Source: Candidatus Bathyarchaeum tardum (GTDB lineage: Archaea > Thermoproteota > Bathyarchaeia > Bathyarchaeales > Bathyarchaeaceae). From it: 64,000 nucleotides of DNA. Made by a program: the position numbers and the translations under genes. Each line of letters begins with the position of its first letter. The first letter of the stretch is position 1. Positions 23,058 to 28,806 of the stretch are shown one piece after another. The stretch spans positions 1,440,001 to 1,504,000 of the forward strand of contig CP122380.1 in the NCBI GenBank assembly GCA_024650005.2. The letters run 5' to 3'. The notes beneath the pieces are model-generated. The model had not been told where the DNA came from and searched no databases. It saw only the letters and a list, made by a program, of their open reading frames with translations.

Positions 23058-23615
23058 TTGCATTTGTTTAACAAAAACCGCAAAACAGTGGGCAGATCAT
23101 TCAGAATAGACGAACAATGGCTCAACGTATTAAATGAAGAAGCACAAAAACAAGGAGTAAGCGTTAACTCTCTTCTAAACAGGCTTTTACAACAGTACGC
23201 TTACCTAAGATACATGCTACGTTACGGGGCAATAACCATGACCCGCCAAGGATTCATGGGAATACTAGAATGTTGCCCTGATGAAAAAATAACTGAACAG
23301 GGAAAAAAAGCAGGAGCAAACATCGTCAAAGACCTTTTGCGCACCATGGGTGTTCCCCCTACTTACAGCTTCATTGTTTGTATTGTTGAAAAACTGTTAT
23401 CTGAGTTTGCAGGATGGTTTGAATGCGACCACCACATCAAACCTGACAAAGAAATCCTCCATTTCCGCCATGACCTCGGACCAAAATGGAGCATTTATCT
23501 CGCAGGGATAACCACTGGAACCTTCAACTCGTTACTAAAAACAGAAGTAAAAATTGAAACAACCAACAACTCAGTAACAATAACATTAAACAAGCCCAAA
23601 CAAAATGAAAAATAG
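23058..23615 (+). CDS. Ribbon-helix-helix domain protein
   Basis: RSFRIDEQWLNVLNEEAQKQGVSVNSLLNRLL N-terminus; HDLGPKWS C-terminal motif. Confidence 0.7.
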   Translation: MHLFNKNRKTVGRSFRIDEQWLNVLNEEAQKQGVSVNSLLNRLLQQYAYLRYMLRYGAITMTRQGFMGILECCPDEKITEQGKKAGANIVKDLLRTMGVPPTYSFIVCIVEKLLSEFAGWFECDHHIKPDKEILHFRHDLGPKWSIYLAGITTGTFNSLLKTEVKIETTNNSVTITLNKPKQNEK

Positions 23616-23825
23616 AGCATCCAGGCGGGATTTAATCCCACCCTAATCTTAATGTTTTTTGTCCTAGTTTTGATTTATTGTCCAATTTATATTCAGTCTT
23701 TACTTGAGCCAGTTAAATTCTTGGTGAACAAAAATTATTTGTTCAAAAACTATTTTATAGCTGCTTCTAATGCAGATATGCATATACATTTTCATCTTGG
23801 TTAATTTTCAAGGAGGAAAAAAATT

Positions 23826-23955
23826 GAGCCGAAGAAGCAAAAAAGAAAAAACAGCAGGAATCGAACAACATAAACAGGCATTACGGGAAAAGAAAATGAA
23901 GAAAAAAGAAAAAAAGAAAGCAACAATATCTGCAAACTATAGAAAAAACAAGTAA
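23826..23955 (+). CDS. Small basic hypothetical protein
   Basis: GGAGG RBS before a TTG near 23825; Lys/Arg-rich; start approximate. Confidence 0.4.
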
Positions 23956-24217
23956 CTGGAGTCTATCTACTTTCTGGTTGGGAATTGAATTTAACCCCCA
24001 CAAATGTTAGGTTTTAAAAGTTATTTTTTTACTGTTTTCTTTTTATTTCTATTTGATTTAAAAAAAAATGGGTTTGAAGAATCATCAATTTGATCAATAA
24101 ATATTTGCACCCACTTTGATTAAGGGGGTTACTGCATTGTTTATCGTAATTAAACTATGGTGCGTGATATCGGTTTCCATTTAAATGTCTTTTGAGAGAA
24201 AAATGTAGTTGGGAATC

Positions 24218-24418
24218 CTACAAATAATACATGTGGTTTTGGGTCTTCTTAATTTTTCCAAGAAAATCGCCTGCGAAATAGTCTAGCCAATATGCTTCTT
24301 GCTCATCAAATTTTGCTTCCAAAAATGTAACGGCTTTTTCCATAGAAATAGCTCCTGCTTTCTCAAGTTTACGAACAAGCCTCAGTTCCATTACAAATTG
24401 CATCCCGTTAATAGACAA
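24218..24418 (-). CDS. Small hypothetical protein
   Basis: GGAGAGG RBS before TTG; 66 aa. Confidence 0.55.
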   Translation of the reverse strand: MSINGMQFVMELRLVRKLEKAGAISMEKAVTFLEAKFDEQEAYWLDYFAGDFLGKIKKTQNHMYYL

Positions 24419-24656
24419 TTTTTAAAACCTCTCCTACATTACCTTGTTTTTCAAAAAGAACACTCAAAATGAACATCAAATAACTAAAAGCCTTTTTACA
24501 GCGACATTAATTAAGAGAATTCTACACACTACATGATGCACTGTACCATATATACTATGTGGAAATCTAATTAATTTTAGAATAGAAAAACATAATGAAT
24601 AAAACATAACTAAAAAATTTTTGCAAAATATGCCTCACAACCTTTTTCATGAATGT

Positions 24657-24686
24657 TGTGGAGCCTCGGGCGGGATTTGAACCCGC
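24657..24686 (-). repeat. att site (copy of tRNA-Thr 3' end)
   Basis: TGTGGAGCCTCGGGCGGGATTTGAACCCGC, identical to 28729..28758. Confidence 0.97.
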
Positions 24687-24717
24687 CTTTAGCCTTAGTA
24701 ATTTTTTCTATTGACAT
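24657..24717 (-). CDS. Integrase N-terminal fragment int(N)
   Basis: AAGAGAG then ATG at 24717 reads MSIEKITKAKGGFKSRPRLH through the att site, in frame with 27839..28726 once circularised. Confidence 0.75.
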
Positions 24718-24744
24718 AATCTCTCTTATTGTTGGCTCGTACAT

Positions 24745-25029
24745 TTAGATTTTTTCGTTCTTTTTTCTATTTTTTATCTGCCAATGATAAATTCCAAAAA
24801 TTAAGAAAATTATTCCAAGAAAAATCAGGATTAACCCAAGAAATTGATAGGCATACTCAAAGAGGTGTGGAGTATATTTCAAAATCCCACTCGAACCAGA
24901 CTCAACATTTATTGACCACATTAGTTCCCAAAGAACAAGAACAATACCAATCAGCACGAAAATAATTCCAAAAACTGTAGCTAATATTCCAATTCCAATT
25001 TTTTGGTCTTTAATTATTTGTTCCCCCAT
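24745..25029 (-). CDS. 2-TM membrane protein (element cargo)
   Basis: Two hydrophobic helices, basic C-terminus, GGTGA RBS upstream. Confidence 0.7.
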   Translation of the reverse strand: MGEQIIKDQKIGIGILATVFGIIFVLIGIVLVLWELMWSINVESGSSGILKYTPHLFEYAYQFLGLILIFLGIIFLIFGIYHWQIKNRKKNEKI

Positions 25030-25225
25030 TGGCGCGCAATCACCATTTGGTTGTTACTACCTATATTACCTGTTCTGCGAAAGTAAATGTTGTGCCATTC
25101 CTCTAACTTGTCAAACTTTTGAATTACCTGAAAAGGCTAGGCTTGCCTAGCTCTTTACCCCCTAGCGGTCACGACCTAGTGACTACCCTGACGGATTAGA
25201 AACTGATTATCATACAAAATTAGGT

Positions 25226-25828
25226 TTAGTCACTAATCAATTGTTTTAGTTGTTCTATCATGTGTTCAATTAAGATTTTGGCTTGCTCGTACATTTCAGG
25301 ATAATGCTTCAAAACTCCAACAATTCTTTTCATTCGTTCAGCATCACTTTCAGAGGCGGTATCAGAAATAAGGATAGTCATAAGCCCCACAAAATCTATA
25401 TCTCCTTTCTTTTCAACAACATTAAGACCTAACCGTAAAACCATGGGATTCAAATGTTCCAATAGTTCCAGAAAACAATGAAGAATTTTAACATCGGGAA
25501 ACAGGCGTTTACTTTCTTCGAGAATAACAACCCTGTCAGCCCCTTCAAGAATTGAAATTATCATTCCCTTAGCCGTCAGCCAATAACGCTCATATTTTCT
25601 GCCTCTATACTCTTTGACATCTGTTTTCCAAATCAACTTCTTTTTTTCTAAGCTCTTAAAAGCAATCCAAGCAGGCTTGTAACTCTTTTCTATAGACGTA
25701 ACTGTTTCGTTGATGGTTTGCGGTTCACTCTTTGCCAAATGGAGAACAATAGCTAATTGTAAAGAGGGTAAGTTATCACCTTTCGTTTTTGATTTTGACA
25801 TATGTTCACTTGCTTTTCCTTTTAACAT
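25226..25828 (-). CDS. Winged-helix DNA-binding protein (element regulator)
   Basis: LQLAIVLHL...TINE...YKPAWIAFKSLEKKKLI...YWLTAKG MarR-like wHTH; divergent from rep. Confidence 0.7.
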   Translation of the reverse strand: MLKGKASEHMSKSKTKGDNLPSLQLAIVLHLAKSEPQTINETVTSIEKSYKPAWIAFKSLEKKKLIWKTDVKEYRGRKYERYWLTAKGMIISILEGADRVVILEESKRLFPDVKILHCFLELLEHLNPMVLRLGLNVVEKKGDIDFVGLMTILISDTASESDAERMKRIVGVLKHYPEMYEQAKILIEHMIEQLKQLISD

Positions 25829-25905: not shown

Positions 25906-27000
25906 ATGAACAAAAAAATTCAAAATTCAAATAATGTTTGCATCATCGAACCTCGAGGTCATGGTGTAGGCGAGTGTGGCGTCGAGGAGCCGAACGGCTC
26001 CGACGACGACGCTTTCACTGACGAACAACCAAAAAAAGAAGATATTTTGAACGAAAAGGGAGAATCAATTCCCCTTTTAGACACACAGAACAGTTACGGA
26101 GAATACGGCAATTTCAAACTTGTTGGCCATGGAAAACCCACAAATGGAAAATGCGGTCACTTTTTCAGGTTCAAAGGCTGTTTGCGTGTCGATTTACACA
26201 ACATAGTAACTCTAGATGGAACCAACTATCAAAATAAGGCGTTTATTCGGCGTGTCCATCATTGGTGCCACAAACCCTCATGTCCAATATGCTACAAACA
26301 CGGATGGGCAGTAAGAGAAGCAGGCAACATAAACGCAAGATGCAAAGAAGCATCCAAAAAACATGGACAAGTAGAACACATCATTTGCAGTGTTCCCACA
26401 AAAGATTACGGTTTATCTTATGCTTACCTTCGCCAAAAAGCAGTCAGAGTTCTAAAAAAACGTGGAATAATCGGTGGATGCCTCATTTTCCACGGCTTTC
26501 GCTACAACATAAAAAGACAATGGTATTGGAGCCCACACTTTCACGTTCTAGGCTACATTCTGGGCGGTTATGGTCAATGCCGACACTGTAAACGCAAAGG
26601 AAATTGTTTGAAAGGCTGTGGCGGATTTGATGACCGCAACTACTGGGAAGGCTACCTAAAAGACGGCTGGATAGTCAAAGTTCTAGGAGAAAGAAAAAGT
26701 GCCTTTGGAACCGCATGGTACCAACTAAACCATAGCAGTTATGACAAAACCAAGAAACGATTCCACATTGCCACTTGGTTTGGAGTTTGCAGTTATCGAA
26801 AACTGAAAGTCACTCCCGAGAAGCGTAAAGAAGTATGCCCAATCTGCCAACAAGAACTTGTATACATCAAATATGTTGGAAAAACTTGTGTAATTAAACG
26901 AAAAGATGACCCTGATTATAATAGAGATAGTTTTGAAGATTTTTTGGATAGTTCAGAAGTTGTGCGTTGGATAATGGCTCCAAAGTCCACACAGACATAA
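25906..27000 (+). CDS. rep: HUH rolling-circle replication initiator with Zn-binding motifs (IS91-transposase/SNJ1 RepA-like)
   Basis: CHKPSCPIC, motif I HIICSVP, motif II WSPHFHVLG, motif III WYQLNH, C-terminal CPIC. Confidence 0.8.
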   Translation: MNKKIQNSNNVCIIEPRGHGVGECGVEEPNGSDDDAFTDEQPKKEDILNEKGESIPLLDTQNSYGEYGNFKLVGHGKPTNGKCGHFFRFKGCLRVDLHNIVTLDGTNYQNKAFIRRVHHWCHKPSCPICYKHGWAVREAGNINARCKEASKKHGQVEHIICSVPTKDYGLSYAYLRQKAVRVLKKRGIIGGCLIFHGFRYNIKRQWYWSPHFHVLGYILGGYGQCRHCKRKGNCLKGCGGFDDRNYWEGYLKDGWIVKVLGERKSAFGTAWYQLNHSSYDKTKKRFHIATWFGVCSYRKLKVTPEKRKEVCPICQQELVYIKYVGKTCVIKRKDDPDYNRDSFEDFLDSSEVVRWIMAPKSTQT

Positions 27001-27252: not shown

Positions 27253-27801
27253 ATGGTCAAAATAAGTGAGGATTTAAGAGACCTCATTTCCTCAACAATA
27301 AATAGTATCAAAGAAGGCTTGAAAGAGGAAAAATGCGGGGTATCTGGGACAATTAAATATGAAGTTTCAGCAGCAAAATCAAAAAAAGCCAAAACTGGAT
27401 TCAAAGTACTTGTTGCAGACGCGTCTGGAGATTACACCAAAGACAACACATCTAAAATCTCTTTTGAAATTGAAGGTGTGCTTTCAGAATCAGAGAAAAC
27501 AGCCCTGAATAACAAAATAAGTAAACTTCAAATTAACTTAAGTTCGAGTCATTCTGAAAATGGGCAACTGAAAAATGAAATACAGTCTTTAAATAGCACA
27601 GTGACAAAGCAACAAGGAAAAATAAAAGAAAAAGACGAAGAAATCAAAAAACTTGGAAACCTCAACAATCAACTTGTTAATAAAATAGCAAATATTGAAA
27701 GACAATTAGAAAGAGCACGTCAAGAAATAGGTGCCCAGAGCAACATTAACAAAAGGCTAAAAGATGAACTTGCAAAGAACCCACGAACGATTGTTAATTA
27801 G
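27253..27801 (+). CDS. Protein with Trypco2-like N-terminal domain and long coiled coil
   Basis: LRDLISSTINSIKEG...IKYEVS...GFKVLV...SKISFEI pattern followed by heptad repeats. Confidence 0.55.
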   Translation: MVKISEDLRDLISSTINSIKEGLKEEKCGVSGTIKYEVSAAKSKKAKTGFKVLVADASGDYTKDNTSKISFEIEGVLSESEKTALNNKISKLQINLSSSHSENGQLKNEIQSLNSTVTKQQGKIKEKDEEIKKLGNLNNQLVNKIANIERQLERARQEIGAQSNINKRLKDELAKNPRTIVN

Positions 27802-27838: not shown

Positions 27839-28726
27839 TTATTTGCGTTTTCTAAATATCTTTAGTCCATCCATTTCTGTGACGTATTCAAACCCAGCCT
27901 CAATAAGTTTTAACGCTTCTTCTGTAGTTGTTGCTGTTCTTGCAATGTATTCTTCTTCTTGGAAGTTTACTAGGTGGGTGTAAATCAGGGTGTTTTCAAG
28001 TCGTTTATGTCCTAGTTGCTGTTTGACTAACAGAATATCTTTGGTTTTGTGATAAAGCATCGTAGCGAAATAGTGCCGAAAACTGTACATTGAGATTTTC
28101 AGTATCTCAGGTCTTTTTAGTTTATTTGCAGTTCTTCTTCTCAATGTTGTGAATACTCGTCGCATAGTCTTTACTTTTGGAAAAATATTGTCATTCAAAA
28201 CAAAGTTGTTTTTCCCAAGGTATTCTTTTAGCATCGCCAGAGTGTGGTCTTTTAACTTTAGAGTTCTCCCATTTCCATGTTTGGCAGTTTCCACATTGAT
28301 TGTTCCTCGATTCAAGTCAAACCATTTTAATTTAGTTCGCTCAATTTCTATTGGTCGCATTCCAGTATCTTTCATAATGTTTAGAATTAGGCTGTATTTT
28401 TTTCCAGCATCACATAACAATGCTGTGATTTCTTCTGTTGTTGGAACATATGGCGGTTGGCTTGAACGTTTGATTATTGGTTGTTGCCATTCTACGTTGT
28501 GATATTTTGCGTATCGATAATAGGCATTTGCCAAACTTTCGATGTAACTGTTTTTTGCTTGTTTATTTGCTAGATATTTTGTTACTTCTTCGGGGTTGTC
28601 AAGGTCTATTGATTTAGCCAGTAGTCTTAGTCTTCTGCCTGTTACTTCAATTGTTGATGGTGCATAATGGTCTTTTTTCATTTCCCATAGTGTTTTAAAA
28701 ATTCTTTCAAAACTACACGGGTTCAA
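27839..28726 (-). CDS. int: Tyrosine integrase, int(C) part
   Basis: TGMRPIE (R), ETAKHG (K), YSFRH, LGH, NTLIYTH (catalytic Y); starts 2 bp past the att site. Confidence 0.93.
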   Translation of the reverse strand: MNPCSFERIFKTLWEMKKDHYAPSTIEVTGRRLRLLAKSIDLDNPEEVTKYLANKQAKNSYIESLANAYYRYAKYHNVEWQQPIIKRSSQPPYVPTTEEITALLCDAGKKYSLILNIMKDTGMRPIEIERTKLKWFDLNRGTINVETAKHGNGRTLKLKDHTLAMLKEYLGKNNFVLNDNIFPKVKTMRRVFTTLRRRTANKLKRPEILKISMYSFRHYFATMLYHKTKDILLVKQQLGHKRLENTLIYTHLVNFQEEEYIARTATTTEEALKLIEAGFEYVTEMDGLKIFRKRK

Positions 28727-28730
28727 TGTG

Positions 28731-28806
28731 TGGAGCCTCGGGCGGGATTTGAACCCGCGACCTCTGCCTTACCAAGGCAATGCCCAACCAGCTAGGCCAC
28801 CGAGGC
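28731..28806 (-). tRNA. tRNA-Thr(GGT), CCA encoded; integration target
   Basis: GCCTCGG acceptor, TTGCC-TTGGTAA-GGCAG anticodon arm, GGTTCAAATCC. Confidence 0.96.

Follow-up and report, generated by a model that had tools for sequence, protein, structure and literature searches.

Results

Gene organisation of an element integrated at tRNA-Thr

The 64,000-nt stretch of DNA analysed here (the window, to which all positions refer unless another contig is named) is part of a 2.15-Mb single-contig genome, and the two sequencing runs that contain it are labelled as mud metagenomes. Searches with the integrase and with the flanks found its relatives in Bathyarchaeia MAGs. A tRNA-Thr(GGU) gene on the minus strand is followed directly by a tyrosine recombinase gene, and the 3' part of this tRNA gene occurs a second time at some distance downstream (Table 1). 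The resulting 30-nt direct repeat spans the tRNA from the 5' strand of the T stem to the encoded CCA, plus 2 nt, and its 19-nt core is present in two exact copies in the window, compared to a mean of 0.01 in 100 shuffles. The two 30-nt copies, which we refer to as att, enclose an element of 4,072 bp. Read along the minus strand, the order is tRNA-Thr, att, the recombinase gene int(C), the 182- and 364-aa ORFs (both on the opposite strand), the 200- and 94-aa ORFs, and finally int(N), a short frame that reads across the distal att copy.

Table 1. Features of the tRNA-Thr locus and of the element integrated there, in window coordinates.
Feature	Position	Strand	Basis
Host flank gene, 185 aa, weak CopG-like N-terminus	23058-23615	plus	sub-threshold Pfam; adjoins tRNA-Thr in three relatives
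Degenerate outermost att-like copy, 15/19 positions by eye	23624-23642		direct reading; homology to empty sites resumes there
Remnant (~1 kb) of older tandem element	23643-24656		missing from empty sites G355, G413, G339
66-aa ORF of the remnant	24218-24418	minus	homologues within related elements L040, L119, L130
int(N), integrated state, 44 aa from ATG 24744	24610-24744	minus	ORF list; reads across att, stops in flank at 24610
Distal att copy, tRNA 3' part duplicated	24657-24686		exact 30-nt repeat
94-aa ORF, predicted membrane protein	24745-25029	minus	ORF list; TAA abuts ATG 24744
200-aa ORF, divergent from the Rep-like gene	25226-25828	minus	homologues in closest elements L119, L151/L009, L131
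364-aa backbone gene, probable rolling-circle (HUH) initiator	25906-27000	plus	ESM Atlas lead, invariant residues
182-aa ORF, predicted coiled coil	27253-27801	plus	sub-threshold coiled-coil Pfam only; homologue in one related locus
int(C), 295 codons, complete tyrosine recombinase	27839-28726	minus	ORF; PF00589 at 5e-21
Proximal att copy, tRNA 3' part + 2 nt	28729-28758		exact 30-nt repeat
tRNA-Thr(GGU), integration target, intact after integration	28731-28806	minus	ARAGORN

Twelve loci of the same genus were included in a check for empty sites. In three of them (G355, G413 and G339) the same tRNA has no insert behind it, and the homologue of the host flank gene lies 24-116 nt from the tRNA-Thr 3' end. 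The surplus of the window over these empty sites amounts to ~5.1 kb and exceeds the 4.07 kb of the element. The additional kilobase is missing from all three empty sites and its 66-aa ORF recurs within the elements of relatives, indicating that the distal att copy adjoins the remnant of an older, decayed element and not host DNA; we thus rejected the reading of the sequence beyond the distal att as host. The 66-aa ORF was also considered as a fragment of an integrase and rejected, since its match to the integrase profile covers just 16 columns (E=0.08). Tandem arrays are found at the tRNA-Thr of two other members of the genus, both with decayed integrases: in G094 (L119, G094:C36) the att copies lie at 514, 4080 and 7437, and in G385 (L151, G385:C14, reverse strand) at 1474 and 6238. 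A 19-codon remnant of int(C) is retained behind the second of the three att copies of G094 and, by analogy with this remnant and as judged by eye, the 15 codons that follow the distal att in the window may derive from the start of an int(C) that has since been lost.

The same chromosome (G000:C1) holds at least nine further integrase matches at 30-51% identity, some with internal stops (for example 653525-654385, 1217907-1218722, 1902917-1903405, 201322-201612 and others, L002-L008 among our loci); to judge from these matches, they suggest more integrated elements outside the window.

The recombinase frame is interrupted at att and is continuous when the att copies are joined

The int(C) frame opens with a TTG at 28726 (minus strand), which follows the repeat by 2 nt and the 3' end of the tRNA by 4 nt, leaving no space for a promoter or a ribosome-binding site (RBS) and providing no ATG, just as the original prediction had described. 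At the other end of the element, int(N) has a second in-frame ATG at 24717. When the two att copies were joined by coordinates with a script, a single open frame was obtained that runs without interruption from int(N) through att into int(C), giving a protein of 325 aa from ATG 24744 or of 316 aa from ATG 24717. The central claim of the original prediction, that the integrase is split by its own att site and rebuilt in frame upon excision, is thus borne out by the in silico join. The 316-aa product that it proposed from ATG 24717 is indeed obtained, with the amendment that this ATG is not the first in frame; the AAGAGAG proposed as its RBS is not conserved in the two closest relatives, G094 and G385.

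Either of the two ATGs may be the start codon. Direct reading shows that ATG 24744 follows immediately upon the TAA that ends the 94-codon ORF upstream. In G385, stop codons occur just upstream of the counterpart to ATG 24717, and G094 has a GTG at this position and an ATG three codons upstream; comparison with these two relatives favours a start at or near 24717. Depending on the start, att begins at codon 11 or 20 of the rebuilt gene, and the part cut off by the split is a tail of ~20-30 residues. This rebuilt-frame architecture is the layout of the SSV-type ('suicidal') integrases.

Existing annotations give a different picture of the gene. Database versions of the integrase are 280, 295 and 311-342 aa long, and these forms are gene-caller choices made in integrated copies. 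Several of the long forms run upstream across the tRNA gene, the tRNA being recognisable by reading their N-termini. Runs of four and five T residues are found 13-35 nt beyond the tRNA and may limit read-through from it into int(C), as oligo-T tracts tend to terminate transcription by archaeal RNA polymerase.

The in-frame join recurs across related elements

Relatives of int(C) were gathered from 29 loci on genome contigs and 80 on metagenome contigs, to which we added 20 regions found in genomes belonging to the same class. In each, a script compared the ~130 nt that precede the integrase with the DNA that follows it; an exact repeat was found at 13 loci of the first set (the window included) and in 17 of the 20 regions of the second, leaving 29 after removal of one duplicate contig. 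At 25 of these 29 loci the join rebuilt an ORF that starts with an ATG before att, crosses att and continues into the conserved body of the integrase. In the two other frames of the same junctions, which served as a control, 9 of 58 were open (20 of 58 if GTG and TTG starts are counted). Clustering of the 25 positives gives 16 groups at 70% identity and 11 at 60%, and the count includes related loci whose mutual independence is incomplete. The join test failed at four loci (L096, L128, L130 and L135), the repeat at L130 being probably spurious. The pre-att tail has a median length of ~17 codons and most rebuilt proteins measure 319-335 aa.

A second argument, which does not rest on counts, is that this tail seems to be translated and under selection. 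The window and G094 share one reading frame for the tRNA-Thr att, whereas G385, L040 and L041 read this same att in the adjacent frame; a matching ATG-initiated int(N) for the second frame is present at the third att copy of G094. The two variants, which occur in relatives at 60-78% identity, differ by one-base shifts on either side of att, and each pairs its own matching int(N) and int(C); the hybrid junction internal to the G385 array, whose int(N) and int(C) come from different variants, is out of frame. Across the family, the tail and the frame through att are conserved, these shifts on either side included. The int(N) peptides are also conserved among relatives, for example in five elements at tRNA-Ala(CGC), where the ATG lies 39-45 nt before att. 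Because in-frame joins were obtained at 25 of 29 loci against 9 of 58 control frames, and because frame changes flanking att come in pairs, we consider the in-frame join, on this comparison of sequences, to be a property of the family and not a one-in-three accident. The circularisation and homologue comparison called for by the original prediction therefore came out in its favour: the homologues rebuild an ATG-initiated ORF across att, and a start at the TTG or at a later codon under its own promoter, with a coincidental join, is not what the data show.

The targets used by these elements comprise tRNA-Thr, tRNA-Ala (two anticodons), tRNA-Leu, tRNA-Gln, an intron-containing tRNA, the 3' end of the RNase P RNA and one conserved site that is not a tRNA. 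The RNase P case is seen at L123:227-529 (att at 508-527), where an element sits in the 3' end of an archaeal RNase P RNA gene (Rfam RF00373, 213.7 bits); L128 and L135 have an att similar to that of L123, yet are among the loci where the join test failed. The conserved non-tRNA att, CTGGGACGGCTACATCATCCCC and variants of it, is carried by nine elements (L054, L067, L068, L073, L074, L091, L125, L133 and L137). Its host target matches no Rfam family at the gathering threshold (only C/D-box sR7 at E=0.37) and is covered by no ORF; it may be a small RNA gene of a new sort.

Of 401 genomes sampled from the class, 146 had a match to the integrase family at E<=1e-40, a count that takes in the classical relatives, and 145 among the 150 matches listed (classical relatives again included) had no internal stops. 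A search for free circular forms (terminal overlap of >=15 nt) among 117 loci returned none, no uninterrupted natural copy of the gene was found, and the viral contig collection yielded no relatives. Many of the family integrases in MAGs lie ~100-700 nt from a contig end, such as 19 on the plus strand among the 150 matches listed, which would fit assemblies breaking at the att/tRNA repeats, or a mixture of occupied and empty sites.

int(C) belongs to an Xer-like family distinct from that of SSV1

The int(C) match to PF00589 scores 75.7 bits, well above the cut-off of 27.1. In the family alignment R124, K149, R217, H240 and Y249 are invariant and Y214 is nearly so. Alignment with XerA places Tyr214 at the HisII position, so that the tetrad reads R..YxxR..Y; a Lys occupies this position in 2 of 24 homologues (P0045 and P0047). 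PF00589 was found in all 22 family members examined (int(C) and 21 relatives) and PF16795 in none of the 22 at E<=1. The SSV1 integrase (NC_001338), run as a control, matched PF16795 at 1.5e-61, with PF07935 at its N-terminus. An hhalign comparison of the family profile (A1) with SSV1 Int gave no sign of relationship, with a probability of 1.9% over 44 columns, and there was no Sulfolobus virus among the organism names listed (10 of 21) for the 74 matches in the phage collection. The original prediction had placed the gene with the SSV1/pTN3-type integrases: this is right as to its partition into int(N) and int(C), and wrong as to its sequence family, given the lack of PF16795, the hhalign result and the Tyr at HisII. 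By these sequence criteria the enzyme of the window is not a member of the SSV/pTN3/pT26-2 clade, pTN3 and pT26-2 being set apart by their description.

The closest solved relatives by sequence are XerA (5hxy, 3e-12), followed by 4a8e, XerH and IntI4. A role as the XerA chromosome-dimer resolvase was considered and rejected, int(C) scoring 96.1 bits against the NCBIfam XerA model NF040815, below its equivalog cut-off of 220 bits. An AlphaFold (AF2) model of int(C), built on a 22-sequence alignment, has a mean pLDDT of 87.7 and is made up of a four-helix N-terminal domain (residues 3-75), a linker, the catalytic domain (97-250) and a small beta/alpha unit (260-294). Helix 1 starts at residue 3, right after the segment encoded by att. 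Over nearly its whole length the model is aligned by Foldseek with XerA (5hxy, top hit at 5e-12), IntI4, Tn1549 Int, XerH, lambda Int and Cre. Because of these domains and near-full-length alignments, int(C) models as a complete core-binding plus catalytic, two-domain Xer-like recombinase. The alignment and the model agree with the earlier claim that all catalytic residues are left in int(C), to which the whole core-binding domain can be added. Since int(C) is predicted to be complete, and has an in-frame TTG and a conserved Met16, the split may leave it active.

Other genes of the element

The 364-aa ORF has no match in Pfam, PHROG or NCBIfam. Its homologues are present in 25 related loci, whatever their att class, and among database proteins they number 803. 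A search of the ESM Atlas provided a lead to Rep_1 (PF01446), with a score of 0.96, 196 shared features and a TM of 0.44-0.51. Across 16 sequences H211, H213 and Y272 do not vary, as would be expected of an HUH nuclease; proteins of the Rep_1 family typically have a PHFHV-type motif. The protein is probably a rolling-circle HUH Rep, which we rate as a good lead, short of a demonstration. With this gene as their hallmark, such small integrative plasmids of Bathyarchaeia may form a rolling-circle family that is yet to be described.

In the interval that separates the 200-aa ORF from the 94-aa ORF (25100-25190, minus strand), we noted by eye a GC-rich segment with a short inverted repeat and then TTTT, followed by TAATATAG ~35 nt before ATG 25029. 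This segment may comprise a terminator and a promoter for a unit made up of the 94-aa ORF and int.

Discussion

Our analysis indicates that a 4,072-bp plasmid-like element integrated at tRNA-Thr carries its attP within the 5' end of its own recombinase frame, so that the gene is split on integration, a reading that we hold with high confidence. In the free circle, the gene would read from ATG 24744 or 24717 through the 30-bp att into the body of the recombinase, encoding a protein of 316-325 aa that is presumably the active integrase, and it probably forms one transcription unit with the upstream 94-codon ORF. Recombination between attP and the identical 3' part of tRNA-Thr(GGU) would insert the circle, restoring the tRNA and splitting the gene. 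After integration, int(N), 35-44 codons long, would keep the promoter of the element, and the 295 codons of int(C) would be left 2 nt behind att without a promoter or an ATG. The split would thereby lower or abolish expression of Int, and excision would need Int supplied by a free or related copy of the element, which itself is likely to replicate as a rolling circle.

The simplest alternative is that this is a classical integrase with att outside the gene, starting at the TTG or at a later ATG, and that the in-frame ORF at the distal end is a coincidence. Gene callers do propose forms of 280 and 295 aa, and at any single locus a frame match has a one-in-three chance of arising by accident. 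This account is already contradicted, however, by the in-frame joins in 25 of 29 elements against 9 of 58 control frames, by the paired int(N)/int(C) frame variants built on the same att, by the conserved int(N) peptides such as those of the five tRNA-Ala(CGC) elements, and by the lack of room for a promoter or RBS between the tRNA end and int(C); we therefore regard it as very improbable. It is also conceivable that the element integrated once and is now an immobile relic, the rebuilt frame being merely historical. A decayed older element does adjoin it, the tandem arrays of G094 and G385 contain decayed integrases, and no circular form was seen among the 117 loci. In the window, however, the 30-nt att copies are identical and all five ORFs of the element are open, and site occupancy varies among close relatives, making a dead element rather unlikely in our view.

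The remaining alternative accepts the split but not its disabling effect: the tail would be dispensable, and integration would exchange one promoter for another, int(C) being expressed in the integrated state by read-through from the tRNA (from TTG 28726 or Met16) and self-excision being possible. This idea is not new, since expression of int(C) from the tRNA promoter has been proposed for pTN3 and TKV4 in the review that describes these integrases (PMC8371274), which also cites weak in vitro activity of a truncated SSV Int(C). It draws further support from the modelling of int(C) as complete domains with all catalytic residues kept, and from the near absence of internal stops among the 150 matches listed, classical relatives included. 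Against it, the frame of the tail and of att is conserved throughout the family, including the frame changes that flank att among close relatives, the T4/T5 runs lie just behind the tRNA end, and a start at Met16 would remove most of helix 1. We consider this possibility to be unlikely, albeit one to be taken seriously, and prefer the reading in which integration would lower or abolish expression of the gene.

The element shares with SSV1/SSV2, pTN3 and pT26-2, as these are described, an attP within the int frame, a target in the 3' part of a tRNA gene and a catalytic part that stays in int(C). A further likeness to SSV-type integrases is that att is translated and that a single att may be used in more than one frame, with frameshifts on its flanks; Badel et al. 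(2020) described the same att in differing frames in pT26-2 and TGV1 as a signature of a translated att (PMC7253208). The differences lie in the enzyme, in what is cut off and in the host. The known families have PF16795, whereas the Bathyarchaeia family has PF00589 only, with Tyr and not Lys at HisII. In SSV1, att falls at about codons 64-78 and a folded N-terminal domain (PF07935, residues 7-74) is severed, whereas only a tail is removed here. SSV-type integrases are described as typical of hyperthermophiles (PMC8371274), unlike the Bathyarchaeia and mud metagenome runs of the present case.

Among other recombinases, XerA and Xer-like proteins (5hxy, 4a8e, NF040815) provide the best matches in both sequence and fold and have the same two-domain layout, but the identity is ~20%, and int(C) differs in being a mobile-element gene with a tRNA att, in the Tyr at HisII and in the extra C-terminal beta/alpha unit. 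Wang et al. (2018) distinguish a pNOB8-type tetrad, R..YxxR..Y, from an SSV-type tetrad, R..KxxR..Y (PMC5861418); the tetrad of int(C) is that of the pNOB8-type by this description, not by sequence. In the pNOB8-type (type II) integrases, att is described as lying outside int, which stays whole (PMC5861418), whereas att in the window lies inside the gene. Classical relatives with the same recombinase body at 33-38% identity exist within the Bathyarchaeia themselves (L016-L027). Their ORFs are 378-437 aa long at 11 of the 12 loci (314 aa in L020) with a long N-terminal extension, which in most of them contains a Cys-rich C-x-x-C-G-[YL]-R-F motif, and at 6 of the 12 the intact gene is followed after 34-68 nt by a tRNA gene, which is the ordinary layout.

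We found no report of self-splitting integrases in Bathyarchaeia in a literature search that covered mainly journals open without subscription; in the accessible portions of studies on viruses of Bathyarchaeia and on Asgard mobile elements, integrases are mentioned and this feature is not described. Our claim to novelty is limited by the fact that 'Bathyarchaeota' occurs 326 times among the classified integrases in Table S1 of the review (PMC8371274), the part of that classification open to us allowing no match between the present family and its family numbers.

The accessible text of this 2021 review (PMC8371274) places all self-splitting integrases in three related families that carry PF16795, namely SSV, pTN3-like and pT26-2-like, and considers a single event probable, with hyperthermophilic archaea having developed the system. 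Five Methanosarcinales pT26-2-like integrases are published exceptions, as is one SSV1-like split integrase in a thaumarchaeon (PMC6563490). The mechanism that we describe is a known one; what is unexpected is the enzyme family and the host group in which it occurs, and the split is minimal. It is possible, and we put it forward tentatively, at slightly less than even confidence, that the placement of att inside int had a second, independent origin in an Xer-like lineage (PF00589, Tyr at HisII) on small, probably rolling-circle plasmids common in sediment Bathyarchaeia. In that case the arrangement would have been invented more than once and would not be peculiar to hyperthermophiles, and the split would act through the loss of a promoter and a start codon and not through the loss of a domain.

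These elements are also poorly captured by current annotation: since callers return 280- or 295-aa forms or artefacts that read through the tRNA, the true N-termini of the integrases and the borders of the elements are missed in MAGs. A tail of ~20-30 residues that can be added or removed makes it possible to separate suicide acting through the protein from suicide acting through expression. If the Xer-like family of Bathyarchaeia does split its own genes, the architecture would be older than supposed or would have evolved repeatedly, and the paradox of how such integrases persist would extend to a group of archaea that ranks among the most abundant in sediments.
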